A DNA stretch of 11,372 nt, taken from positions 1 through 11,372 of the IMG/VR virus record IMGVR_UViG_2778261165_000014; one strand, given 5' to 3'. Position 1 is the first letter of the stretch, and each line of letters opens with the position of its first letter. The notes under the pieces were generated by a model. That model did not search any database. It saw only the letters and a program-made list of their open reading frames with translations, and was not told where the DNA came from. Below, piece after piece: positions 1 through 11,372 of the stretch. Origin of the DNA: a virus. Lineage: Duplodnaviria > Heunggongvirae > Uroviricota > Caudoviricetes. The position numbers and the translations under genes were made by a program.

Positions 1-17
1 GCCAGATATTGAATGGC

Positions 18-425
18 CTACGCCTCCGGCAGTTCAGGCCAGATGACATCCGGCGCGGTGCTGGTATCAGTAGCTGTCACCGCGTCAATGTAATCCAGCA
101 CAGCGTTAAGGCGGGTTGTTTCTGCCTGCGTCAGTTTACGTCCGGCCTGCAATTTCAGCTGAATCAGACTGATGGAAGCCATAGCAGCATCAATCAGATG
201 CTGTTTCATTAATTCAGATGCTGCAACCAATTCATCATGAGTTGGTTGTGCGGGTTCTGCCAGTACAGGCAGTCCGTTACTGTCTGCCGTAATATTCTTT
301 CCTGCCTCCTGACCAGCAATAAGTGCGTCATATACTTCATCACTGATTTCTACTGCGTCACCGGGTATATAAGAGGATATATCGGAGTTATAAAGAGCAA
401 TCGGAGCAGATGTAAAATATTTCAT
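18..425 (-). CDS. Tail fiber assembly chaperone (Tfa-like)
   Basis: Minus-strand ORF immediately downstream of the tail-fiber gene. The C-terminus ends ...DVIWPELPEA, matching my recollection of the conserved Tfa C-terminal motif. Preferred start is the second ATG (425..423), which has GGAGA 5 nt upstream; the ORF-track start at 437 abuts the upstream TAA and has no SD. Confidence 0.7.
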   Translation of the reverse strand: MKYFTSAPIALYNSDISSYIPGDAVEISDEVYDALIAGQEAGKNITADSNGLPVLAEPAQPTHDELVAASELMKQHLIDAAMASISLIQLKLQAGRKLTQAETTRLNAVLDYIDAVTATDTSTAPDVIWPELPEA

Positions 426-437
426 TGTTTTCTCCAT

Positions 438-1181
438 TTACCAGCCAATTGCCAGCCAACACCATGTTGCAGGTGATGATTCACTGCCTGTACTCATATT
501 TTGCCCTATCCATGATGCTGATGTTCTTCCTGGAATATAGAACCGAACATTCGATAAATCCGTAGACGCTGTCGCAAAGTCATGCGCAAAAATCGCAATA
601 CACGCATTTGGAAATGCGGATGGGAAGGTAATAACACCATTTCTTGCTGAGCTGGATATCTGAGATGCCTGAATAATAAACTCCATGTTAACGCCGTTAA
701 TAACTACCGGGATTTTTGCTGTCAACGTATTACCGTTAATGACAAGTGCAGCGGCAGACATTTTTGCCGCTTCCCCCAAACCAAGGTATGAAAGAATATC
801 TTTCCACCCGGTACCATTGCTGTTTGGATCAGATAGATTTCCTTCTGTTGTATTAATGAATATTCTTTCCCCATCGTCCGATATGAGCATCGCCCCAGAC
901 GGATATCCAGAAATCTCCGAAGCAAATTCAGAATCAAAAGTGTTCAGCGCCCCGGTGCTCGACCATCTCCCCAGAGCAGAAAGTTCGTATAAAATTTGGT
1001 TCATATCCTGGCCTTTTGGCGGCAAACCGCCAGCAGATTTCAGGATCATTGTTATTGGAGGGAACCCCTGTTCATACGATGCTGAGTTATCACCTGCAGG
1101 GGTGGTTGGCAATATTGCCACTCTCTGTCCATTAACTCCAAATGGCTTAGGTTGTTTTTTAGGTGAGTCAGAACGATTCAT
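438..1181 (-). CDS. Tail fiber protein (short, 247 aa)
   Basis: ORF sits between a baseplate-associated gene and the Tfa-like chaperone. AGGA lies 7 nt upstream of the ATG at 1181. The protein is Gly/Ser/Thr/Asn-rich, as fibers typically are. Function is inferred from synteny, not from a recognised domain. Confidence 0.6.
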   Translation of the reverse strand: MNRSDSPKKQPKPFGVNGQRVAILPTTPAGDNSASYEQGFPPITMILKSAGGLPPKGQDMNQILYELSALGRWSSTGALNTFDSEFASEISGYPSGAMLISDDGERIFINTTEGNLSDPNSNGTGWKDILSYLGLGEAAKMSAAALVINGNTLTAKIPVVINGVNMEFIIQASQISSSARNGVITFPSAFPNACIAIFAHDFATASTDLSNVRFYIPGRTSASWIGQNMSTGSESSPATWCWLAIGW

Positions 1182-1183
1182 GC

Positions 1184-1822
1184 TTAATTCCTATAAAATG
1201 TGCCGTCATTAAATGGATATGCATCTGTAGCAAAACCAAAGTATGGGCTTACAATTTGTTTGATATTTACCTGAACTCCACTTGGTACAGGAGTCACATC
1301 GTAATTTGTTAAAATCGATTCTTCGTAGGGAGCAAGTGAGAACTCAAAATTTATACCAATGGTCATATCTCTGTAATTGACACAATATGCTCTGCCTCGT
1401 TGATAAAAAAGTATTTTAAGAAATTTATTTATATCAGGAATGGTTGCCACACTGATGTTAGTAAAAGCCTTGCAGAGTATTAATGTTCTGTAAGCATCAT
1501 CCCCAAGCCTGACATTCGTTGTTTCCTGAATGCCGACGTAAAACGGAGAATTATTAAATGGTGCCGGGTAATCAGTACTCCCATCATCTGCTTCGCTAAA
1601 TCCAAATGAATCGCTATCTATTGGCGCAACAATATATCTGCTTATGCCAACAATTTTCCCCCACATATCAAGCCCGAATGTTTCGCAGGTAGTTAAATCC
1701 CATACCTTTTTAATGAATTCCTCTGTGAAATCATCAAGACTCACTGCCTGGTTAAATGTGTCTATGATGGACAATAATTTCTTACTTGCTGAGTATTGGG
1801 TAAGTATTGTGTCTTCCCACAT
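1184..1822 (-). CDS. Baseplate or tail-fiber-associated structural protein (occupies the position of Mu gp48-like proteins)
   Basis: 212-aa ORF tightly packed between the baseplate J-like gene (stop 1833-1835) and the tail fiber gene. Family assignment is positional only. Confidence 0.55.
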   Translation of the reverse strand: MWEDTILTQYSASKKLLSIIDTFNQAVSLDDFTEEFIKKVWDLTTCETFGLDMWGKIVGISRYIVAPIDSDSFGFSEADDGSTDYPAPFNNSPFYVGIQETTNVRLGDDAYRTLILCKAFTNISVATIPDINKFLKILFYQRGRAYCVNYRDMTIGINFEFSLAPYEESILTNYDVTPVPSGVQVNIKQIVSPYFGFATDAYPFNDGTFYRN

Positions 1823-1832
1823 GCCTCACCCC

Positions 1833-3062
1833 TCACGATAGAATTACGGTAATATCTGATTCCTGAATTGTCGGAACCTGGTCGATACCCATTGTTATTG
1901 CTGGCCCATAGGCTGATCCATCAATGGAGACTTCAAGCGATAAAATCCCAACGGTGTCAGGTGATATTGAAATAACCGGAGCATAATACTTACCGGCGTT
2001 AATGGTAGAGCCTATCCTTGCCTTCCCGATCCCCTCATAACCACCATTGAAAACTGATACGATCATGCTTTTCACTTGTGATGTGATATCACTAGGTGGA
2101 TTAAGAGAGCTATCCAGCTCAACGCTAAAATAAACCCTCGTCGGAGTTGCTTTTTGCCACTGCATTACATAGGAAGGGTATGGAGGTAGATAGTTAACAT
2201 TGTCGTAAACCGTGTACGAGGTATCTCCGTTCAGATTTGCTCCAGGGTTGTACGTCTGGAAAATTGACTCCGCTACATCCTCATCAGTTCCACCATACAC
2301 ACAGATGTAAATAGAGTGCGCCACCACAGGGAAGTTAGTAGCTCCCTGATTTACTGTGGCTGCAGTTCTGTTTGACCATACATAGGCATCCAGCACACCA
2401 TTCGTAGCCAGCAAGGCAGATAGTGTCGATGCGTCCTGATTACGGCTATTTCTCGCGACCGACTGCTTGCGACGTGTTTCAAATGCAATACGTGATTCAA
2501 CATCAACGCCAACAACGCCTGGGCTCGCGTTTGTGATCGCATCCCATCCAGATACTGCACGGTAAATCTGATTTAATGCACCTGCTGCACAGGGTATTGG
2601 TCCGGTTGTGTTATTTACAAACTGAACATCAATGCTTCCTGATGCTGGTATTGTTGCGATGTCGATAGACCGGTAAATATATCCATTGGTATCAATGGCT
2701 GTGCTTCCCGCGGGGATTGTCGTTCCGACCTGACCAATGCATGTTGCTGTAACAACTGTCCCCTGAGCAGCGATCCGTTCCATAAAGTAAATCCGGCCAA
2801 TCCCGTCCTGGAATCTGCCAGTTGAGAAGTCAGGGTTAATTTGATTAAACAAACAAAGAAGTTTGTCGTATTCCTGAGCAATAATTTCAGTGTCAGACTG
2901 TGCGATCTGCCCTTGCGGTGAACTCAGTGATTGACTAGCACCACCGCCAAGAGCCGTTGACATGTCTGTAAGTCTTCCCGCCAGCACATCCGCTATGTCG
3001 GGAACTGAAAGACCGTTTTCAGTGATGGTTACATCAGGAACAGCCGTATTTAATATCGTCAT
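1833..3062 (-). CDS. Baseplate J-like protein (gp47/gpJ family)
   Basis: 409-aa ORF. Its start overlaps the upstream gene's stop as ATGA (3062/3059). Size and position after a GP46-like gene and before the fiber genes fit the baseplate J family; the assignment is by recollection of that family, not by search. Confidence 0.7.
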   Translation of the reverse strand: MTILNTAVPDVTITENGLSVPDIADVLAGRLTDMSTALGGGASQSLSSPQGQIAQSDTEIIAQEYDKLLCLFNQINPDFSTGRFQDGIGRIYFMERIAAQGTVVTATCIGQVGTTIPAGSTAIDTNGYIYRSIDIATIPASGSIDVQFVNNTTGPIPCAAGALNQIYRAVSGWDAITNASPGVVGVDVESRIAFETRRKQSVARNSRNQDASTLSALLATNGVLDAYVWSNRTAATVNQGATNFPVVAHSIYICVYGGTDEDVAESIFQTYNPGANLNGDTSYTVYDNVNYLPPYPSYVMQWQKATPTRVYFSVELDSSLNPPSDITSQVKSMIVSVFNGGYEGIGKARIGSTINAGKYYAPVISISPDTVGILSLEVSIDGSAYGPAITMGIDQVPTIQESDITVILS

Positions 3063-3418
3063 AAGGTGGCCTGTGCAATATTACCATTGATATCTGTAAC
3101 GCGGATTGTGCCGCGAGTTGTGCGTGTATTCTTGTCAAAGAAAACTGATGCCAGAGCATCCTCAACAACGGGTAATTTGAGTGCTTCAGCCTGCATTTTC
3201 TGAGCAATAAAACCAGGAGATGGTCGCCTGCCAAGAACTTCTGCCTTCCATGGGATCCCAAGTGTATTGTCGTAATAACACTCTCCTGAAAACACCAGGC
3301 ATGCACTGGCGACATCCTGAGCAACAGAATATGATTCTTCTGCGATCGCCAGATTGCCATTTCCGTCAAGCGTCAAGTCCCACGTAGATGTGTCCAGTTG
3401 CATAGTTCTGTATGTCAT
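3059..3418 (-). CDS. Phage GP46-family baseplate protein (small)
   Basis: 119-aa ORF with N-terminal ...TWDLTLDGNGNLAIAEE..., resembling the D-L-x-L-x-x-D-G-D-L opening I recall for Mu gp46-like proteins. ATGA overlap with the upstream gene at 3415-3418. Confidence 0.6.
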   Translation of the reverse strand: MTYRTMQLDTSTWDLTLDGNGNLAIAEESYSVAQDVASACLVFSGECYYDNTLGIPWKAEVLGRRPSPGFIAQKMQAEALKLPVVEDALASVFFDKNTRTTRGTIRVTDINGNIAQATL

Positions 3419-4107
3419 GTCGGTTTATCCGTTGCATTGGAATTTATTGTTGCCCCACCACTTTGTACACCTGAAACAGAATGTTTGTGATTGTTATAAT
3501 TGTCCCTTAAATTTTTAACAGTAGATGACTGTGAACTTGCGTTATCCTGAATATCACCGCTAACTTTAAGTAAAGGAGTATTCATGTTGACTCCATCAGG
3601 AGCATCAATATTTAACGATGAACATTTAATATTTAGTGGGTTAGGCGTGGTTATGTTTATTGCACCATCAGCAAATTCAATGAATTGAGTAGGTGCAATA
3701 TTTAATACCCCACCAAGATAAATTGCATCAGATTTACTGTGTCGCCTTTTGCTTCCAGGTACTGATTCTTTACGATTTTTTCTTACCAGTGATGTGTCTT
3801 TGTCACATATCGCAATCAGACCAATATCACCCGCCACAGGGTCCATAATTACAGCGCTGTTTCCTCTTTGCAACCGCCATACGGGAAGGTCATATAAAAC
3901 CGAGTTAGAAATCATTTTTCCTGTACGGTCTGTTCTGGTTAGTAAAGGAAGAGCGTCAACAACTAAATCCGGTGCTTTCCCCCTGACTTCCTGAACTCTC
4001 GCTAACTCAATGAAGAAATATCCAGACATCATCATCTCAAAAATATATTCCTGAGATTGAGCCTCACTTACCTGAGCAGGCGTTGGAGTAAATAGTTGCT
4101 TATCCAT
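3415..4107 (-). CDS. Baseplate assembly/spike protein (gpV / Mu gp45-like)
   Basis: The ORF track gives 3415..4200, but that overlaps the upstream gene by 101 nt. The internal ATG at 4107 (MDKQLFTPT...) reduces the overlap to 8 nt and is my preferred start; its SD is weak. Function is inferred from position and size. Confidence 0.55.
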   Translation of the reverse strand: MDKQLFTPTPAQVSEAQSQEYIFEMMMSGYFFIELARVQEVRGKAPDLVVDALPLLTRTDRTGKMISNSVLYDLPVWRLQRGNSAVIMDPVAGDIGLIAICDKDTSLVRKNRKESVPGSKRRHSKSDAIYLGGVLNIAPTQFIEFADGAINITTPNPLNIKCSSLNIDAPDGVNMNTPLLKVSGDIQDNASSQSSTVKNLRDNYNNHKHSVSGVQSGGATINSNATDKPT

Positions 4108-5089
4108 TATTCTGTTGCGCCTCTGCTCTTTGTTCCGCTGTTCTGGCGGCAATACATATTGAGTGCCATGAACCATTTGGCATCCATGATGATAACTCAT
4201 GCCGAACGGAGGTTAACTTATACCTTCCGCTTGCATGTGGTAGTCCTGTTTTGATATCCACATATCTTCCAATGCAAAGGAGAGATGAATATTGCGTCTG
4301 AAACATCAGTCCCCCATTTGAAAATACAGGATATCCAACAAGTCCGTATTCTCTGGATATAAACGGAATTACATCGTCTCTGTTTTTTTCTGAAGGCCAG
4401 AACTCTACTTTTGTCGGTGGCGTAGCTGACATCGCCAGTCCATAATCTGAACAGACCCTATAAAGTTGCTCAAAAACACTTCCTTCAAAATGCGGACTTC
4501 CTGATGTTGTCATCCCTTTTACATTATTAAACACAGCTTCATAACCTGCACTTGCACAAATGGATGAGATGACATCTTCAACACTTTGCGCCCCCTGCGC
4601 TGTAAACGGGCTTGCTGGCATGTTCTGTAAATCAACATTAGAAGAGGCTGTTATCATCAGACTGCTTTCAGGAGCAGAATTCATGTTTGCTATTGATGAA
4701 AGCATCGTGCCGGAGAAAACAAGAGAATCATCAGCAAATACCTCAACATTTAACTTCTGACCTTCCCCAACAATACCATCAGCCTTCCCTGATATATCAG
4801 CAAGTCTTTCAATTCCTAACCCGTAAAGAGATATATCAGCCTGAGCACCTCCACGACCGGTAACAAAGTTCAGGGATACTGTTGACTTAACATTTCTGAT
4901 GGAGATTTTATTGTTTCCATTTTTATCAAATGCTGATGATTCATTCGTGAAGTCAAACCGAAGACTGTGATTTTTATACAAGCTCGTTTTCCTCGATGTA
5001 ATACAGCAAGTAACGGCTACCCAATCCTTCCCATCGCGGGTCCGATTCCCCATCATTATCAATGAAAATAAGGTCTCCCTTAAATCCAA
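4100..5089 (-). CDS. Baseplate hub-like protein (gpD / Mu gp44-like position); start ambiguous
   Basis: 329-aa ORF from the ATG at 5089 overlaps the upstream 100-aa ORF by about 116 nt. An alternative TTG start at 4981..4979 has GAGGA 8 nt upstream and would overlap by only 8 nt. Function is positional inference. Confidence 0.55.
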   Translation of the reverse strand: MDLRETLFSLIMMGNRTRDGKDWVAVTCCITSRKTSLYKNHSLRFDFTNESSAFDKNGNNKISIRNVKSTVSLNFVTGRGGAQADISLYGLGIERLADISGKADGIVGEGQKLNVEVFADDSLVFSGTMLSSIANMNSAPESSLMITASSNVDLQNMPASPFTAQGAQSVEDVISSICASAGYEAVFNNVKGMTTSGSPHFEGSVFEQLYRVCSDYGLAMSATPPTKVEFWPSEKNRDDVIPFISREYGLVGYPVFSNGGLMFQTQYSSLLCIGRYVDIKTGLPHASGRYKLTSVRHELSSWMPNGSWHSICIAARTAEQRAEAQQNNG

Positions 5090-5276
5090 GGTATGAATAT
5101 CTTACCATCTTATTCCCATGCAGACATGGAACGCCCTGCATAATTGGGACTTCATTAACAGTTAAATCCATGTACATAAAACTCTGTCGCTGAACAATTT
5201 TTATATTACATTGCTGACCAGCCAGACTTACCGAAATGGACTGAGATTTGCTGGGAAGAACAGATACTGTAATCAT
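4974..5276 (-). CDS. Hypothetical small tail/baseplate-associated protein (100 aa)
   Basis: ORF whose ATG (5276..5274) overlaps the upstream gene's stop as ATGA, suggesting translational coupling within the late operon. No recognisable motif. Confidence 0.5.
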   Translation of the reverse strand: MITVSVLPSKSQSISVSLAGQQCNIKIVQRQSFMYMDLTVNEVPIMQGVPCLHGNKMVRYSYLGFKGDLIFIDNDGESDPRWEGLGSRYLLYYIEENELV

Positions 5277-6088
5277 GTACTCGCCTTAACTATATTTTTT
5301 GCAATATCTTCCGCTTTTTTTGTTGCGCTGTTTGTGACTTCGAGTATTGGTTTGGATACCGTATCAAGAGCACTCTGAAATTCAGTCTTGATTGTGTCGG
5401 AGATTTTTCCAGTGATTTCGCCAACAGATGACTTCAGTGATGACCATGATTTACTTAGCTCATCGACAGTAGATTCCCTGGCTCCGCCATTGGTTATTTG
5501 CGGATCAACTCCTACATCTCCCTGCGACTTATTGTTATCCGTTGGCTTCTGTTCTGACTGAGATCCGGAGAGGATAACCTCCATTTGCTGAATGACCTCC
5601 TGAAAATCAAGATAAACCGTCAGAAGAGTCACCCCCTTTTGAGAGTTAACTTCGTAATAGTGGTCAACAAGGTCGAAACTCTCCAGAGTTTCCTTCGGCG
5701 TTTCAATATCGTATGTTTTTGCAGAGGACAGCATCGTTTTGATTGTGTTCAGCGTGCTGTTCTGGCTTGTGAATGTGAGATCGAAAATATTCGGGATGTT
5801 GCCGGAAAAACCAGTAAGACCATTTACGATGATTGCACATCTTACTCTGGCGGGTTCTTTAACTTTGTTGATGGACTGGTATTTCCCTTTCTCCACCGGA
5901 GCGTTTGTTATTTGCGCCCTTCCGCTTGGCTGTACGGATGCCATACCACTGAACTCAAGAGCAACCTCGCCAGTTTCCCTGTCACGAATCACATACTGGG
6001 GATGCAGAACGCTGTCGATGATCGAAAGCGGAGAGCCACCACCGATAGCATTGAATATGTCTGCTGTGTTTAAATCGATTATGCCCAT
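5273..6088 (-). CDS. Phage tail/baseplate structural protein (271 aa), first gene after the ant terminator
   Basis: ATG at 6088 with GGAGA 4 nt upstream. Lies immediately downstream of the hairpins that follow ant and upstream of the baseplate genes. Function is positional. Confidence 0.65.
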   Translation of the reverse strand: MGIIDLNTADIFNAIGGGSPLSIIDSVLHPQYVIRDRETGEVALEFSGMASVQPSGRAQITNAPVEKGKYQSINKVKEPARVRCAIIVNGLTGFSGNIPNIFDLTFTSQNSTLNTIKTMLSSAKTYDIETPKETLESFDLVDHYYEVNSQKGVTLLTVYLDFQEVIQQMEVILSGSQSEQKPTDNNKSQGDVGVDPQITNGGARESTVDELSKSWSSLKSSVGEITGKISDTIKTEFQSALDTVSKPILEVTNSATKKAEDIAKNIVKAST

Positions 6089-6098
6089 CTACTCTCCA

Positions 6099-6166
6099 TT
6101 AAACAAAAACCCAGCCGAAGCTGGGTTGTTGCGTTTGTTCTTGACCTGCACTTTTCGTGCAGGTGG
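6099..6166 (-). terminator. Tandem hairpins downstream of ant; the second is an intrinsic-terminator candidate
   Basis: Hairpin 1: acctgcac (6144-6151) pairs with gtgcaggt (6157-6164), 5-nt loop. Hairpin 2: aacccagc (6108-6115) pairs with gctgggtt (6120-6127), loop cgaa. On the minus-strand RNA hairpin 2 is followed by UUUUUGUUUAA (reverse complement of 6099-6109). Confidence 0.5.
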
Positions 6167-7027
6167 TTAAAATGGTTGTAAGCCTTTCAGCCCTGCGGCA
6201 TCCTCCAGACTTTTCTTAACGCTTGCAGTTACGGAATAGCAATCTGCAATTCTTCCGCAAAATCTGGTCGCAACCGGAGAGCCAAGCAATCGCAAAGCGG
6301 GTTCCATTTCGTCTCTCCATATTCTGTACATGGCATCAAGATGAATGCACGCCGAGTTCAGGTTATGAACATTCATCCTCCAATCAAAACAACTCATCTC
6401 ATTATGTTTCGACTTGCCGATGAATTCGCCTTCAAGTGGAACTCGAGCTGCAAGTGACAGTGCTTCGGTAAACTGCTCCTCACGGATTTCTTTGTATGAA
6501 CATCCAAAATGAGATTTCAGTGACGACCACATGGTGATCATCGCCTTCGCCTGTTTTTCTTTTGGCAGAGACTGACCGCGACTCATGACAAGTTGTTTAA
6601 TGGCTTCCTGCTGTTCAGTGGTGATTTTACCCGGCAATGCCTTTTTAGCTTTGCGCGGGTTAACCACATGGCCTTTAGTCCAGTACTCGTAGAGCACATC
6701 GTCACACTCTTCCTGATAGTGGATTACATTGTCGCGGATTTCAGGGCGGACTTTGTTAGGGCTGATGGTTTGCAACCAGCCATTCAGTTTACGTAAAGCA
6801 AGGCAAATCATGGTCTGCACGCCGCCAACTGAAGGTATTGCGATTTCCACAATACCTTTAGCAAATCTTTGTTTTAACTTTGTAAACTGTGAAGCCCAAT
6901 CCATACCCATTCCCTCAACGATAGGTTTCATTGGGGTGTACGGTTCGCCGTTGTGATTGACAACATAAAGCTCTGCGCCGTGAAATGGCACGTTGATAGT
7001 AGATACCGCTGTTGCTATACTTTTCAT
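6167..7027 (-). CDS. ant: Antirepressor (Ant-like)
   Basis: 286-aa ORF directly downstream of an Arc-like gene and divergent from an Mnt-like gene, which is the P22 immI arrangement. Size is close to P22 Ant (about 300 aa as I recall). GAGGA lies 9 nt upstream of the ATG at 7027. Confidence 0.75.
   Translation of the reverse strand: MKSIATAVSTINVPFHGAELYVVNHNGEPYTPMKPIVEGMGMDWASQFTKLKQRFAKGIVEIAIPSVGGVQTMICLALRKLNGWLQTISPNKVRPEIRDNVIHYQEECDDVLYEYWTKGHVVNPRKAKKALPGKITTEQQEAIKQLVMSRGQSLPKEKQAKAMITMWSSLKSHFGCSYKEIREEQFTEALSLAARVPLEGEFIGKSKHNEMSCFDWRMNVHNLNSACIHLDAMYRIWRDEMEPALRLLGSPVATRFCGRIADCYSVTASVKKSLEDAAGLKGLQPF
6993..7021 (+). promoter_or_regulatory. Candidate sigma70 promoter for the sar-like antisense RNA (TTGATA-17-TATACT)
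   Basis: -35 TTGATA at 6993-6998, a 17-nt spacer, and -10 TATACT at 7016-7021 on the plus strand, inside the 5' end of ant and pointing toward arc. Confidence 0.5.
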
Positions 7028-7097
7028 GTCAGTTTTTCCTCAATACTTACTGGCGATTTAAGCCCTAGATACTCGCAATATCTGGGGCTTTACTCAT
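7028..7097 (+). ncRNA. sar: Candidate sar-like small antisense RNA (about 70 nt) complementary to the ant ribosome-binding region
   Basis: The predicted start just after the -10 box lies opposite the ant start codon and SD. The plus-strand hairpin agccctagata (7061-7071) / tatctggggct (7079-7089) has an 11-bp stem with one G-U pair and a 7-nt loop, followed by T-rich ttactcattct (7090-7100). Length and position match what I recall of P22 sar (68-69 nt). Confidence 0.5.
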
Positions 7098-7240
7098 TCT
7101 GGACAAACAATCCCGTCCTTAGCTACCGACTCCTTAAGCCTCCTCAACACCTCATTGCTGAATGACCGATCATCCTTTTTCGCTGACTGCTCCAAAGCTT
7201 TTTCGAGCCATTCTGGCATCCTTAACGTTTTTACTTTCAT
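7094..7240 (-). CDS. arc: Arc-like ribbon-helix-helix repressor (48 aa)
   Basis: Not in the ORF track because it is under 60 aa. Manual translation gives MKVKTLRMPEWLEKALEQSAKKDDRSFSNEVLRRLKESVAKDGIVCPE, with AGGAG 5 nt upstream of the ATG at 7240..7238. The LRMPEW and RSFSNEV segments resemble the P22 Arc strand and helix regions as I recall them. Confidence 0.7.
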   Translation of the reverse strand: MKVKTLRMPEWLEKALEQSAKKDDRSFSNEVLRRLKESVAKDGIVCPE

Positions 7241-7253
7241 TTTCGCTCCTTTG

Positions 7254-7270
7254 GTATGCGGTACGCATAC
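7254..7270. promoter_or_regulatory. 17-bp palindromic operator candidate (GTATGCG-gta-CGCATAC) over the predicted start of the arc-ant transcript
   Basis: Perfect 7-bp inverted arms read directly from the sequence. It lies immediately downstream of the predicted -10 of the arc-ant promoter, the geometry expected for an Mnt-type operator. Confidence 0.5.
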
Positions 7271-7299
7271 ATAGTATGTAGGTACGCATTGATAGTCAA
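7271..7299 (-). promoter_or_regulatory. Candidate promoter for arc-ant (Pant-like; TTGACT-17-TACTAT)
   Basis: On the minus strand, -35 TTGACT is the reverse complement of 7294-7299 and -10 TACTAT is the reverse complement of 7271-7276, with a 17-nt spacer. A GGTACGCAT direct repeat (7261-7269 and 7281-7289) and the palindrome ATTGAtagTCAAT (7288-7300) overlap it. Confidence 0.5.
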
Positions 7300-7317
7300 T
7301 AGATACCTACATATCCT
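7289..7317 (+). promoter_or_regulatory. Candidate divergent promoter for the mnt-like gene (TTGATA-17-TATCCT)
   Basis: -35 TTGATA at 7289-7294 overlaps, back to back, the -35 of the arc-ant promoter inside the palindrome. The -10 candidate TATCCT at 7312-7317 is weaker. Confidence 0.3.
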
Positions 7318-7345
7318 GTGGTAAAAAATTATTCAGGATATGCTG

Positions 7346-7588
7346 ATGTCTGAACGCAGGTACAAGAACCCACAAGTTAATCTTCGACTTCCTGTGGAGA
7401 TAAAGGATCGCCTAACCGCGTTAGCTGAGGAGAATGGCAGATCTTTAAATGCAGAAATGGTTGCAGCTCTAAGTGCATGGGCAGGAGAAAATAAACATGT
7501 TCACTCGCTTAGCCTTTCTTCCTTAACCGAAAGATTAATAGCTCTTGAGAGAGAGGTTGCAGCCATTAAGGAAGCAAACATCAAGTAA
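7346..7588 (+). CDS. mnt: Mnt-like ribbon-helix-helix repressor
   Basis: The ORF track starts at 7340; the second ATG at 7346 has AGGA 7 nt upstream. The N-terminus ...PQVNLRLPVEIKDRLTALAEENGRSLNAEMV... shows the Arc/Mnt family pattern, and the C-terminus LTERLIALEREVAAIKEANIK looks like a coiled coil, which Mnt uses to tetramerise. Divergent from arc-ant. Confidence 0.7.
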   Translation: MSERRYKNPQVNLRLPVEIKDRLTALAEENGRSLNAEMVAALSAWAGENKHVHSLSLSSLTERLIALEREVAAIKEANIK

Positions 7589-7611
7589 GAAGACGATATT
7601 ACGAGGTTGCT

Positions 7612-8079
7612 ATGGCATGTCTTAGCAAGGAAGAAAATGAAATCATCAATGTAGAATTTAAAAAAACATCAGCAGATGAGTTGTTGATAATCAAGAAATT
7701 AATTATCGATGTTAAGAACCATAAAGGGCTATACCAAGATGTCGTAAAGCATGGTCAAAACCTGTACAACTCAAAGAATAACATCATTCAAGAAACCGGA
7801 CTTAGCGAAAAGATATCTGGTCGTCTTGCTATGATCCTTTGGTCTATCACTAATCCTGAGGTTGAGGCGGCACGCCGATTAAAGATTAAGATCACTGAGG
7901 CAACGTGGGTGTTTGAGGATTTCCTATGTAAACATCCCAGTCACCGCAATCTCAATGGCAAAAAGTACTCTATTCGTAAAGGAATCAGGATCGGTTTTTT
8001 CAAGCACATCCACCCAGGACAACTTGTAGGGTGTGGATGTTTATCTAGACCCATAATTCCAGGGTTAAAAAACTCTTGA
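7612..8079 (+). CDS. Hypothetical protein (155 aa), unrecognised, in an AT-rich cargo island
   Basis: ATG at 7612, 23 nt after the mnt-like stop, with an SD-like acgagg upstream. Hand count of a 100-nt sample (7612-7711) gives about 29% GC, against about 49% for a sample in the baseplate J gene (2401-2500). The C-terminal region has a Cys/His cluster (C106, H108, H111, H132, H134, C141, C143). Confidence 0.55.
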   Translation: MACLSKEENEIINVEFKKTSADELLIIKKLIIDVKNHKGLYQDVVKHGQNLYNSKNNIIQETGLSEKISGRLAMILWSITNPEVEAARRLKIKITEATWVFEDFLCKHPSHRNLNGKKYSIRKGIRIGFFKHIHPGQLVGCGCLSRPIIPGLKNS

Positions 8080-8088
8080 TAGTAGTAA

Positions 8089-8328
8089 TTAATTTCCATC
8101 AAGGGCAGCAAGCAGCGAAGTGCGCAACTCTTCTTGAGTCATTTTCAACTCTCCGCTCTTTGCTTGCCGGCGAAGATCATCGACCACCATTTTGGTGAAT
8201 TCTGTAGGGGTAATCTCACTCTCGATAGAGACCTCTCTCCCGAGAAGCAATGATATCCCACCCCAAATTAGGCTAAAGGCATTACCAATATTTTTTAACG
8301 ATGGAGTGTAAACGATGGAAAGTTTCAT
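8089..8328 (-). CDS. Possible small protein (up to 79 aa, or about 53 aa from TTG at 8250), antisense to the start of the 116-aa plus-strand ORF; uncertain
   Basis: This is the C-terminal part of the 161-aa minus-strand ORF in the track. It has a hydrophobic stretch (IGNAFSLIWGGISLLLG) followed by a charged tail (...EFTKMVVDDLRRQAKSGELKMTQEELRTSLLAALDGN). The plus strand has no ORF of 60 aa or more across 8080-8314. SDs are weak. Confidence 0.25.
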   Translation of the reverse strand: MKLSIVYTPSLKNIGNAFSLIWGGISLLLGREVSIESEITPTEFTKMVVDDLRRQAKSGELKMTQEELRTSLLAALDGN

Positions 8329-8665
8329 TTTTACCGTCCGACAAGAAGATGTTGAATCATTAAACGAAGCAATGCAAACATGGGGGCTAGAACATAAGCC
8401 ACATGTAACACTAGCATTCGACAGCTCGTCTCCACCAGAGTGGGTGCAAGTAATTGTTAACGGAATAACAAGCCCTGCGGCAATGAATTGTTTATCTGCT
8501 GCAATTGGATATTTCGTCGCCAGAAACAAGGGGAAAAAGCTAGAGATACAAACTAACGACGGGAAAAGATTCATCGCTGAAGGGTTTAATCATCGTGAAA
8601 TAAGCGCCTTACTGAGCGAATGTCAAGATCATATCGTTGTCAATAATGATGACAAGCCCACCTGA
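8315..8665 (+). CDS. Hypothetical protein (116 aa), unrecognised
   Basis: ATG at 8315 with GGAG 8 nt upstream (8303-8306). Same orientation as the mnt-like gene and the neighbouring cargo ORFs. The sequence looks like a soluble protein; no motif recognised. Confidence 0.5.
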   Translation: MESFIFTVRQEDVESLNEAMQTWGLEHKPHVTLAFDSSSPPEWVQVIVNGITSPAAMNCLSAAIGYFVARNKGKKLEIQTNDGKRFIAEGFNHREISALLSECQDHIVVNNDDKPT

Positions 8666-8729
8666 GTAGGCATTGCGTGTTTTTTCTTCATTTAATGGGC
8701 AATTGAAATAACCAATACGGATCTCTAAA

Positions 8730-9131
8730 ATGAACATCTTAAAATCTACCATCTCAATCCTCTTTCTGCTAAGCCCTTCCGTGTGCTTCTCGTCTGGCGG
8801 CCTTACTTCACATCAAGTTTTAGTGGATTGCAACAGAGCTTCATCGTCCTTGGTTAGCTCCTATGAAAAGAACGTTCCATTGCAGGAGTCCAAAAGGATG
8901 GACCTCATACAGACAATATCCCGCGTATGCCAAGGTGCATACCAAAACGCTTACGATGGCATGCAGTATGAGGACATTGAAAGAGAGGTTTTATCAAGCG
9001 CCAAAAAACAAAAGAAAAATCTTCAAGGAGAAAGCAAAAAAAATACCGAGAACAGAACCGGACTAGTTCTTTCCGCCATTCAGGTAGGGTATTACATATA
9101 CCATAATGGCGGTCTTGATAATAAAAAATAA
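8730..9131 (+). CDS. Hypothetical secreted or membrane-associated protein (133 aa) with N-terminal signal peptide
   Basis: The N-terminus MNILKSTISILFLLSPSVCFSSGG has a basic n-region and hydrophobic core typical of a Sec signal. The C-terminal part is Lys-rich and contains a second hydrophobic stretch (GLVLSAIQVGYYIY). Its 3' end converges on the tape-measure gene with a 20-nt gap. Confidence 0.6.
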   Translation: MNILKSTISILFLLSPSVCFSSGGLTSHQVLVDCNRASSSLVSSYEKNVPLQESKRMDLIQTISRVCQGAYQNAYDGMQYEDIEREVLSSAKKQKKNLQGESKKNTENRTGLVLSAIQVGYYIYHNGGLDNKK

Positions 9132-9151
9132 TCGTCATTATGACATGATCG

Positions 9152-10969
9152 TTAAGGTGTTACACCACTAGAAAATGCCGCGTTTGTTGACACCCGGCTA
9201 ACTTGCTGATTGACACTTCTGGTAAGAGCATCAACTGTTGTCGGGTTACTGTTAACAACAACCGTGCCAATAGTTGTACTGCTGCTACGACTGTTGTCAA
9301 TTTTTGATGTTGTCTGGCTTGGTGTTGAAGCGATGCGTTGCTGCTGCTGATAGTAAGCCAGCGTCTCGTTTTCTTTTGCATTAAGAGCTGCGCGAATCTT
9401 TGGTACATATTCTCGCGTTTCTTTCGGCAGGGTGTTCCAGTATTTGGATGATGGTGAATCAAACCCGGTACTGGATATGTATTTTAACTTTTTGTCTACA
9501 TTGCCCATCCCCCAGTTGTAAGCCATCAGCGCATGGTTAACATTGCCTTTATAGTGCTTTAGCAAATCCCTCATGAACCTTTCAGCAGCAGCGCGAGATT
9601 TCACTTCATCAAGACGCTCATCAATCCCATCCCCGACCTTTAACCCGTACGCTATGGCAGTATCCTTCATGAGCTGATACGGACCAACAGCACCTTTCGG
9701 GCTGTAAAGTTTTTTACCACCACTCGATTCCACCTCACGAATGGCATCAAGAAGAGAATCCATGCTTACAGGCTTTACTCCGTCAGGGAGAGGGATATCT
9801 GGCTGAATGTTATTGCCATAAATCTCATCTCCCCTACGCCCAAAATCGGTGTCAAACCCCATGCTGCGCATGGTATCTCCAAGTTCACGCTTAGAGTAAT
9901 CAAACGATCCTTTAGCTGCACCCTCAATGTTTTCCCTGTCATTGTAGAGGTACAAACCATATGCTATTAACCCAGCCAACCATGGAGGAAGGGCACCGCC
10001 TGTAAGTTTGCTTCCTACATATGCTGCTGCCAATAGTTTCAGAGCCTCTTCCGCACCACCAACTGCCTTTGTGAATTGCTTCGTCATATTCCCGGCGTCA
10101 TTGAAAAAGCCAATGATGTCGCCATGATGTTTCTCAATCCAGGAACCAAAAGCCTTCATCCCGTCAATAACGTCTGGAGCGAATGCCATGGCTAAATTTT
10201 GCTTTAATCGGGAAAACTCTGAATCAAGTTGCCCAAGAGTGGCAGCAACCTTCTCCTGCTCTTTTACCTGCTGTGCGGTAATACGGGATTTCTTTGTTTC
10301 TGAATCGACAAGCTGCTTAAGTTCCCCTGATTTTATTTTAGCGGCATCTGTCGGATCGAACCCTGATGCAGCCATCACCTGCATCAGGTTTTCTTGAGAA
10401 TGAGTCTTGCCATAGCGAGAAAACTCAGCAAGAGCCTTGTTTGGGTCGCCGAGCTTATTGATATCTAATCCGGTACGAGCTCCAAGAATCAGCAAATTTT
10501 GGGCAGCGCCAGTAAGCCCTCCCATAACAGTCGGATCGGCAATATTTGCCAAAGCCATTCTGGCATTCCCAGAAGATGAAATGAACGAGTCACCGTTAAG
10601 ACCAGCCTGGCGAAATCCCCGCTGAACACCAAACATCTTATTAACATCAGAGCCGAAAAACTTGGCCTGTTGGCTGGCCCTCACAATTTCGTTGGCAGTA
10701 GATGTAAAAAGTTGCTTGATTCCATACAACCCTGCGCCAATTCCCAAAAATCCAGCGGCTGCTGTTGTCACGTTGCGGAAAGCTGAAACAGCGGTTTTAC
10801 CGAACCTCTCCATTTCCTTCCGCCGTTTTTCAAGTTCCTTTAGCCTTTCCTTCTCAGCCCTGGAAAGATCTTTGTTTAATTTACTAACTTCATCTTTTAC
10901 TTTCCGTTTTCCATTCAGGAATTCATCGGCCTTAATTGTGACCTTGTAGGCCAACTCATTGATAATCAT
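9152..10969 (-). CDS. Tape-measure-like protein with C-terminal SLT lytic transglycosylase domain
   Basis: 605-aa ORF. The N-terminus has a charged coiled-coil-like stretch (KRKVKDEVSKLNKDLSRAEKERLKELEKRRKEMERF) and Gly-rich hydrophobic segments. Around aa 400-515 (nt 9425-9772) it carries family-1 SLT motifs: E-S (E414, codon 9728-9730), GAVGPYQLM, and AYNWG. GGAG lies 5 nt upstream of the ATG at 10969. Confidence 0.7.
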   Translation of the reverse strand: MIINELAYKVTIKADEFLNGKRKVKDEVSKLNKDLSRAEKERLKELEKRRKEMERFGKTAVSAFRNVTTAAAGFLGIGAGLYGIKQLFTSTANEIVRASQQAKFFGSDVNKMFGVQRGFRQAGLNGDSFISSSGNARMALANIADPTVMGGLTGAAQNLLILGARTGLDINKLGDPNKALAEFSRYGKTHSQENLMQVMAASGFDPTDAAKIKSGELKQLVDSETKKSRITAQQVKEQEKVAATLGQLDSEFSRLKQNLAMAFAPDVIDGMKAFGSWIEKHHGDIIGFFNDAGNMTKQFTKAVGGAEEALKLLAAAYVGSKLTGGALPPWLAGLIAYGLYLYNDRENIEGAAKGSFDYSKRELGDTMRSMGFDTDFGRRGDEIYGNNIQPDIPLPDGVKPVSMDSLLDAIREVESSGGKKLYSPKGAVGPYQLMKDTAIAYGLKVGDGIDERLDEVKSRAAAERFMRDLLKHYKGNVNHALMAYNWGMGNVDKKLKYISSTGFDSPSSKYWNTLPKETREYVPKIRAALNAKENETLAYYQQQQRIASTPSQTTSKIDNSRSSSTTIGTVVVNSNPTTVDALTRSVNQQVSRVSTNAAFSSGVTP

Positions 10970-11205
10970 CGCTGCTCCTGATGTTTATTCCAGACCCGCT
11001 TGTTAAATGATTCCACCGAGATAATTTCCAGCAGGTTATACATATCACGAACAGATAACCGTTCCTGCAAATCGGTATAAGTGGCTTTTCCTGAACAGAT
11101 AATGGCGTTCATTGATGGTGTGACGTTTACGGGGCTAACGAGTTTTGCCGGAAGAGTCTCCTCCTCCATGAACGGGTACTTCACTCTCCGGCGATCGTTA
11201 AAAAA
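10966..11205 (-). CDS. -1 frame extension (T-like) of the tail assembly chaperone, predicted to be expressed by programmed frameshifting as a G-T-type fusion
   Basis: This reading frame opens right after a stop at 11206-11208 and runs to 10966, overlapping the tape-measure ATG as ATGA. It has no convincing start or SD of its own (the track's start at 11184 is GTG; the first ATG at 11170 lacks an SD). The slippery heptamer UUUUUUA lies at 11205..11199 on the minus-strand mRNA. Confidence 0.55.
   Translation of the reverse strand, partial: FFNDRRRVKYPFMEEETLPAKLVSPVNVTPSMNAIICSGKATYTDLQERLSVRDMYNLLEIISVESFNKRVWNKHQEQR
11147..11205 (-). other. Programmed -1 ribosomal frameshift signal: slippery heptamer U UUU UUA plus downstream hairpin
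   Basis: On the mRNA the zero-frame codons are GAU UUU UUA (11207..11199). After a 6-nt spacer (ACGAUC), GCCGGAGAG (11192..11184) can pair with CUCUUCCGGC (11156..11147), giving a 9-bp GC-rich stem with one bulged U and a 27-nt loop. Confidence 0.5.
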
Positions 11206-11372
11206 TCAAAATTGACTTTAAATACCTTATCCATTACCTGACGAATGGTTGATACCTCTTCAAAGTCGACAGGCTTCACGGTTCGCACCTGTCTGCTGCC
11301 TTCGTGTGTAATCACAATTTGCACAGTTGACATCAGGCGATCACGAAGTTTTCTGGCGACTTCCGGCGATGC
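11181..11372 (-). CDS. Tail assembly chaperone (G-like), 3' portion; 5' end lies outside the window
   Basis: Open frame from the window edge to TGA at 11183..11181, translated manually as ...ASPEVARKLRDRLMSTVQIVITHEGSRQVRTVKPVDFEEVSTIRQVMDKVFKVNFDFLTIAGE. It sits immediately upstream of the tape-measure gene and contains the slippery site near its 3' end. Confidence 0.55.
   Translation of the reverse strand, partial: ASPEVARKLRDRLMSTVQIVITHEGSRQVRTVKPVDFEEVSTIRQVMDKVFKVNFDFLTIAGE

Follow-up and report, generated by a model that had tools for sequence, protein, structure and literature searches.

We analysed a stretch of viral DNA of 11,372 nucleotides (nt) (Caudoviricetes; IMG/VR record IMGVR_UViG_2778261165_000014, positions 1 to 11,372; hereafter the window) that carries an arc–ant gene pair like the one in phage P22's immI region. 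To judge from its sequence, an element on the plus strand of the arc–ant spacer is a diverged, unannotated copy of the P22 sar RNA. The predicted antisense RNA, of ~67–70 nt, would extend from 7028 to 7094 (3′ end at 7094–7097), as indicated by an Rfam match, by a covariance model of our own and by analogy with P22; both termini, including the 5′ one at G7028, are predictions. The element lies antisense to the spacer and to the ant ribosome-binding site (RBS), its putative promoter, Psar, is found within the 5′ end of ant, and it folds into two stem-loops with an anti-Shine–Dalgarno (anti-SD) sequence in the first loop. Reasoning from P22, cis-antisense repression of Ant translation by this sar homologue would best explain the element, and we assign this reading a probability of about 0.82. 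What points to it in the window are the sequence features, the homology, the conservation of the structure and of its strand, and the conservation of the promoter.

An Rfam search at the gathering threshold gave no match in the window. In a permissive search of 6850–7400, the best match was RF00262 (sar), at 7028–7094 on the plus strand, which covered model positions 1–68 of 68 with 28.7 bits (E = 0.0011). The P22 record annotates sar at 15021..15090, Psar at 15097..15125, the ant ATG at 15091 and, at 15022, the last position of arc, and the geometry of the window relative to arc and ant is that of P22 base for base: the 5′ end of the element abuts the ant start and its 3′ end lies at the arc stop. 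Pairwise alignment with P22 showed identity both in TTGCTATACT, the −10 region, and in the TTCATGT that surrounds the ant start codon; it also showed that stem 2 differs by three fully compensatory pair changes. A preliminary description of this DNA had proposed a transcript of about 70 nt with the size and placement of P22 sar; the full-length alignment to RF00262, the annotated P22 geometry and the identical TTGCTATACT bear this out. The RefSeq annotation of the corresponding locus in NZ_CP148507 includes no RNA feature.

Folding of 7028–7100 (73 nt) gave a minimum free energy of −24.3 kcal/mol (z = −5.6), which none of 200 shuffled sequences equalled. Stem-loop 1 (7028–7054), which was absent from the preliminary description and was found on folding, has a stem of 6 base pairs (bp), GUCAGU/ACUGGC, and a 15-nt loop. 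Within this loop the sequence reads UCCUC (7037–7041), the complement of the ant Shine–Dalgarno (SD) sequence GAGGA, and the relatives described below keep a UUCC/CUCC motif in loop 1. Stem-loop 2 (7060–7090) is a G+C-rich hairpin of the terminator type, in which 7060–7071 pairs with 7079–7090 around the 7-nt loop CUCGCAA (12 bp including one G·U, −16.6 kcal/mol). An 11-bp hairpin had been noted about 35 nt past the promoter; a hairpin is present there, which measures 12 bp and begins 32 nt past +1. It is followed by a weak U-rich tail, UACUCAUUCU (7091–7100), which overlaps the arc stop codon (7096–7094).

A promoter scan located Psar at 6993–7021 and thereby confirmed the TTGATA-17-TATACT arrangement previously noted on the plus strand inside the 5′ end of ant. 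This promoter, with 10/12 consensus matches, sits within ant codons 3–12. Its −35 hexamer, TTGATA (6993–6998), matches the consensus at 5/6 positions, and the extended −10 element, TG-c-TATACT (7013–7021, with the TG at 7013–7014 and the hexamer at 7016–7021), combines a 5/6 match with the TGn extension and is the reverse complement of ant codons 3–5. Transcription is predicted to start 7 nt past the −10 box, so that +1 would be G7028, adjoining the ant ATG (7027–7025).

To compare the element with its relatives, the Arc protein of the window was used as a query, which yielded 80 viral contig loci. A scan of genome contigs for the same protein yielded three loci (Yersinia, Chimaeribacter and Pantoea), too few to establish a taxonomic range. 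A covariance model was built from 7 sequences, with 17 base pairs (5 in stem 1 and 12 in stem 2). In each of 84 sources, namely the window, P22, SEN22, CUS-3 and the 80 related viral loci, this model found exactly one full-length match (84/84), which was always antisense to arc and always ended where the next large gene, the antirepressor, has its start codon. The window itself scored 86.5 bits at 7028–7100, and the model also matched the three genome loci and phage TL-2011b. Among the 41 distinct sequences, 99.4% of the pair cells were standard pairs, and in stem 2 every cell was paired (100%). Changes on both sides of a pair were observed in 12 of the 17 pairs, comprising all 5 modelled pairs of stem 1 and 7 of the 12 of stem 2. 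When the partners were shifted by 1–3 columns, only 30–48% of the cells were paired, and 0/500 shuffles reached any of five conservation measures. The covariance and folding check that had been proposed across homologous immI regions thus found both hairpins kept by compensatory changes in 41 distinct relatives.

A close-range comparison within this set involves the L008 group, whose Arc proteins are identical to that of the window. Stem 2 differs between the two by 4 substitutions, which amount to 2 compensatory pairs (U·G to G·U and A–U to C–G), none of them disruptive. The idea that the stem-loops vary faster than their background, as expected from selection for specificity, was discarded: a hand count gave 6/73 differing RNA positions between the window and L008 against ~7.5% nearby, and therefore no signal. 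We also rejected the possibility that loci L054–L077 lack sar, because the model places the element ~190 nt farther on, past an extra small open reading frame (ORF). About 25 loci (L057:1638–1841 and similar ones in L054–L077) carry this ORF, which encodes a cysteine-rich protein of 67 amino acids (MSKECCFCG...CSDC...), between the arc-like gene and sar; in loci of this type it is the 67-amino-acid ORF, and not arc, whose end is overlapped by the 3′ tail of sar. Another candidate, a match of 19.4 bits (E = 0.027) to the P22 late promoter/tR′ region in L001 (4888–4953; a short late leader RNA with a terminator), was judged to reflect a hairpin-plus-tail resemblance only.

The promoter is conserved together with the RNA. 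A TAnnnT hexamer was present in all 49 distinct upstream contexts and the TGn extension in 43 of them; in 42/49 the end of the hexamer preceded the modelled start of the RNA by 6 nt, and the distances of 7 or 9 nt in the remaining seven appear to reflect variation in the end point of the model alignment. TTGATA at a 17-bp spacing was present in all relatives that have the Ant N-terminus type of the window. In the coding sequence, this hexamer corresponds to ant codons 3–4 in reverse complement. Codon 4 of ant was always NTA (ATA 21, GTA 8, TTA 5), with no other synonym, whereas elsewhere in the same genes ATA makes up 9% of the Ile codons, GTA 26% of the Val codons and TTA 17% of the Leu codons. 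Likewise, Ser at codon 3 was always encoded by AGY, compared with 27% elsewhere. In L049 the ant start is one codon closer, and the distance from the −10 box to the RNA stem is unchanged. The antirepressors have different N-terminal Pfam domains (P22_AR_N, Bro-N and KilA-N), and all of them start with M-x-S/I/T-I/V/L-A; the loci named for these varied domains are window 6167–7027, L031, L051, L054 and L045. These codons are the −10 box of the predicted antisense promoter, so that the mosaic junction of the cassette seems to fall within the antirepressor gene.

The hairpins could in principle belong to the minus-strand arc–ant mRNA and serve, for example, in processing, stabilisation or attenuation between arc and ant, with the promoter match on the plus strand arising as a chance by-product of A/T-rich ant codons. 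Consistent with this, the Psar match alone is not significant, a complementary hairpin forms on the minus strand (−17.8 kcal/mol), and the covariance model gives weak, hairpin-only matches of 16–20 bits on the opposite strand. The two strands can nevertheless be told apart, since a G·U pair on one is an A·C mismatch on the other. On the sar strand we counted 126 G·U cells and 1 A·C cell, so that the mismatches fall almost entirely on the mRNA strand. The sar-strand fold was more stable than its complement in 26/26 sequences, by 5–17 kcal/mol, and the 10 nt past stem 2 contained on average 4.9 T residues on the sar strand and 2.6 on the complementary one. From these three differences it follows that the structure was selected in the plus-strand RNA and not in the arc–ant mRNA. 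In the window, the minus strand has no T run past the hairpin (UAAAUCGCC) and folds less stably (−17.8 vs −24.3 kcal/mol), in agreement with the plus-strand-only terminator orientation given in the preliminary description. Moreover, the spacing between the −10 box and the RNA is the same even where the amino acids or the codon register have changed. We consider an mRNA element very unlikely.

Several observations weigh against the assignment to sar and its proposed function. First, the RF00262 score of 28.7 bits lies below the gathering cut-off of the family (43 bits), which is the operational criterion for membership. The relatives, however, form a continuous series from 97.8 to 28.6 bits: P22 scored 97.8, CUS-3 84.6, L033 53.4, L028 51.4, L051 41.2, L047 36.4, L008 29.3 and L043 28.6 bits. 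The low score of the window is therefore attributable to the narrow seed of RF00262 and not to a different architecture, and the element lies at the diverged end of one sar family. Second, the Psar match taken by itself is no better than chance in the window: promoter matches of this quality numbered 3, against 1.65 ± 1.36 expected, and 53/200 shuffles had at least 3. The description of the promoter as near-consensus is accurate for its 10/12 matches plus TGn, but the quality of the match is within chance for the window. Third, A/T-rich rare codons are common past start codons for other reasons and could explain part of the codon bias; the fixed register of the −10 box relative to the RNA nonetheless argues for a promoter constraint. 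Fourth, the covariation was counted on an alignment fitted to the model. For this reason two further checks were made: RNAalifold on the covariance-model alignment returned the same two helices, and single-sequence folds gave both hairpins, starting at nucleotide 1, in 26/26 unique sequences. A plain MAFFT alignment of the 26 unique RNAs analysed with RNAalifold recovered only 7 stem 2 pairs and left stem 1 out of register, and the covariance-model alignment was used in its place.

The remaining points on this side concern the 3′ end. A T-rich tract had been reported after the hairpin, and this tract is weak: the stem is good, but the tail, UUUACUCAUUCU, is poor in U, and a terminator scan of the window did not call stem 2. 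In a canonical intrinsic terminator, a tract with at least 5 U in 8 residues directly follows the G+C-rich stem. Because such a tract is missing here and the site did not pass the scan, the position of the 3′ end and the efficiency of termination are uncertain. The annotated terminator tail of P22 sar is equally U-poor. In addition, a 104-nt sar species has been described in P22 RNA-seq data (PMC13397905).

The sar RNA of P22 binds to ant mRNA and represses the synthesis of Ant (PMC11016777, PMC3134472). Its role, as summarised in PMC12111858 with reference to Wu et al. 1987, is to inhibit translation from the transcript of the late promoter (PLATE). In the text of that source the inhibited gene is arc, whereas in PMC11016777 it is ant mRNA that sar binds; PLATE and Pant each give transcripts of both arc and ant (PMC12111858). 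By analogy, in the window a strong sigma-70 promoter within ant codons 3–12 would fire on the plus strand from G7028 and give an untranslated RNA of ~67–70 nt ending at the hairpin at 7060–7090. Being encoded in cis, this RNA would be perfectly complementary to the ant leader, including the whole arc–ant spacer and the ant RBS, and would expose its UCCUC (7037–7041) in loop 1. Pairing with the ant mRNA would then block ribosome binding and hold down the synthesis of the antirepressor. RNA production, the 3′ end of the RNA and translational repression are carried over from P22 and would apply to the window by analogy.

Such repression would matter most for read-through from the late (tail) operon, which is beyond the control that Arc and Mnt exert at Pant. 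The arc–ant direction is the same as that of the tail genes on both flanks, a late structural operon, as in P22. Late transcription would therefore cross ant regardless of Arc or Mnt, and since the need to control late transcripts is the same as in P22, we favour translational repression by a cis-antisense RNA.

A different way in which a real Psar could act is transcriptional interference, by collision with or occlusion of polymerases from the Pant-like promoter or the late operon, the RNA itself being of little importance. The near-consensus Psar is convergent with the Pant-like promoter (7299..7271, minus strand) at a distance of ~235 bp, and the weak U tract would permit read-through into arc, both of which would fit such a mechanism. 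Interference alone, however, has no need of a conserved strand-specific RNA fold or of an exposed anti-SD, and the P22 RNA binds ant mRNA, according to work cited in PMC11016777. We regard interference as the main function of Psar as distinctly improbable.

The published work on P22 sar includes Liao et al. 1987, Wu et al. 1987 and Schaefer & McClure 1997, as cited in PMC2629481. Like P22 sar (RF00262), the element of the window is antisense to the arc–ant spacer and ant RBS, has its promoter within the first ant codons with an identical TTGCTATACT −10 region, and would give an RNA of ~68 nt with two stem-loops, of which the first has an anti-SD in its loop and the second is a G+C-rich 3′ hairpin followed by few U residues; in both phages the module is embedded in a late operon and is co-directional with it. 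The differences lie in the sequence, as fewer than two thirds of the RNA bases of the window match those of P22 in a pairwise alignment. Stem 2 and its loop differ (7-nt CUCGCAA in the window, UACC in P22), with compensatory changes in the stem, and the −35 hexamer is better in the window (TTGATA) than in P22 (GTGTTA). The partner proteins are distant (Ant 40% identity, Arc 31%, Mnt 44% over the N-terminus), and the host phage is myovirus-like.

In P22-like phages, arc, sar and ant are parts of immI and form a mobile 'ant moron' (PMC2629481). The sar elements of epsilon34, CUS-3, SEN22 and UAB_Phi20 share with the window a cassette of one or more repressor genes, sar and ant, which is a mobile moron in late operons (PMC2629481, PMC12111858). 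Those phages, in contrast, are Lederbergvirus podoviruses in which the module lies beside the tailspike gene, while in the window it lies between the lytic tail or tape-measure-like gene and baseplate genes. The arc–ant stretch of SEN22 is 87% identical to that of the window. A looser parallel is provided by OOP of lambda and P22, directed against cII/c1, and by P22 a23, directed against gene 23, which are also short constitutive antisense RNAs with terminator hairpins that damp a lysis–lysogeny regulator (PMC5415839); a23 is annotated in the P22 record. OOP differs in that its overlap is with the 3′ end of the target and its action is by mRNA decay (PMC5415839), whereas the element of the window covers the RBS, as sar does. 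Neither OOP nor a23 has any sequence relationship to the element.

The module itself is made up of mnt, arc and ant in the P22 order and orientation, as identified by the Pfam domains Arc and P22_AR_N and by BLASTP against the P22 proteins. The ant gene (6167..7027, minus strand) encodes an antirepressor of 286 amino acids with a PF10547 (P22_AR_N) domain (E = 3.9e-44) and 40% identity to P22 Ant. The C-terminal part of Ant (window 6167–6600) resembles by eye that of the Bro-N-type protein of L033, which suggests domain shuffling. The arc-like gene (7094..7240, minus strand) encodes a ribbon-helix-helix repressor of 48 amino acids (PF03869, 31% identity to P22 Arc), labelled 'Arc family DNA-binding protein' in RefSeq. 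The mnt-like repressor gene (7340..7588, plus strand) encodes 82 amino acids with 44% identity to P22 Mnt over the N-terminus; RefSeq places its start at the second ATG (7346).

The source of the window was matched to an E. coli chromosomal prophage that adjoins torT; the interval 6900–7350 is 100% identical in NZ_CP148507 and the arc–ant junction was matched, at least in part, by 275/5,426 complete E. coli genomes. The flanking genes on the minus strand encode a baseplate J/wedge protein, a baseplate hub protein, a DUF2612 protein and, at 9152–10969, a protein of the lytic tail or tape-measure-like type. Farther from the immI module are a gene for a DUF3383 protein, in the slot expected of a tail sheath, and a major capsid gene. 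Because the flanking genes encode a contractile-tail baseplate, the host is a contractile-tail, myovirus-like E. coli prophage, unlike the P22-like podoviruses, and the distinct phage background proposed in the preliminary description is thereby supported. The tail/baseplate cluster occupies window 1–6100 and 8089–11372, and the immI module sits between the tape-measure-like gene and the baseplate genes. A comparison of the prophage backbone with the phage collection identified no close relative, the only match being a 200-bp tail-fibre-assembly fragment.

Given this prophage setting, we considered whether the prophage or its immI module might be defective and the sar-like sequence an inactive relic, inherited but no longer expressed or needed. 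Ant, at 286 amino acids, is shorter than in most relatives (307–309 amino acids) and has no P22_AR_C match, and the prophage adjoins pseudogenised tail-fibre fragments, both of which fit a relic. On the other hand, Psar is nearer to the consensus than its P22 counterpart (−35 matches of 5/6 vs 3/6), both stems are intact, and the reading frames of ant, arc and mnt are all open. The same RNA sequence recurs in the viral contigs L006 and L007, and 6900–7350 is 99.6–100% identical across four E. coli genomes. A relic is thus highly improbable, and a sar RNA that would still repress Ant translation is preferred.

Other regulatory features were found around the module. A consensus scan identified a Pant-like promoter, TTGACT-17-TACTAT (7271..7299, minus strand), which lies in the position of P22 Pant and would drive arc–ant, and, overlapping it, a Pmnt-like promoter, TTGATA-17-TATCCT (7289..7317, plus strand), directed towards mnt. 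An 18-nt inverted repeat (7275–7292/7296–7313, 83% complementary) spans both divergent promoter-like sites. The region 7271–7317 looks like the P22 Pant/Pmnt pair with its operator, with a different sequence. A perfect 9-nt inverted repeat, CATATCCTG/CAGGATATG (7310–7318/7334–7342), extends as far as the first mnt ATG (7340) and may act as a second operator or, in the mRNA, as a hairpin masking this first start. About 40 nt past the ant stop, a terminator scan detected a strong bidirectional intrinsic terminator (6108..6127) with the stem AACCCAGC-TTCG-GCTGGGTT and T runs on each side; TTTTGTTT follows the stem AACCCAGC/GCTGGGTT on the minus strand. To enter the baseplate genes, late transcription would need to read through this terminator, presumably by antitermination. 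Past mnt there are three plus-strand ORFs (7612–8079, 8315–8665 and 8730–9131) in the slot of P22 sieA/orf59a, with weak PHROG matches; these may be moron cargo such as exclusion genes.

The mechanism of sar has been understood since 1987, and the gain in that respect is small. What is new is a diverged sar member, its myovirus-type host and its absence from the annotation. Because standard annotation, by the Rfam cut-off as well as by RefSeq, misses the RNA of the window, control of antirepressors by antisense RNA is under-counted among E. coli prophages, and the covariance-model alignment could serve directly as the basis of a broader Rfam seed. The comparisons suggest that the immI cassette, including its RNA, functions beyond the P22-like podoviruses and is accompanied by several types of antirepressor domain. 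They also point to a clear case in which a promoter lying within a coding sequence would fix rare codons and an N-terminal peptide in otherwise unrelated proteins. A broader proposal, which we put forward tentatively and consider unlikely as a whole, is that the sar family, far wider than RF00262, is a portable cassette whose junction lies a few codons into Ant, hence the shared M-x-S/I/T-I/V/L-A, and, as a further possibility, that the mosaic of compensated stem-loops, found even where Arc is identical, marks trans-acting specificities. If such specificities exist, the sar of a resident prophage could silence ant in superinfecting relatives, but only in those that share its RNA type, which would add an RNA-level layer to immunity specificity.

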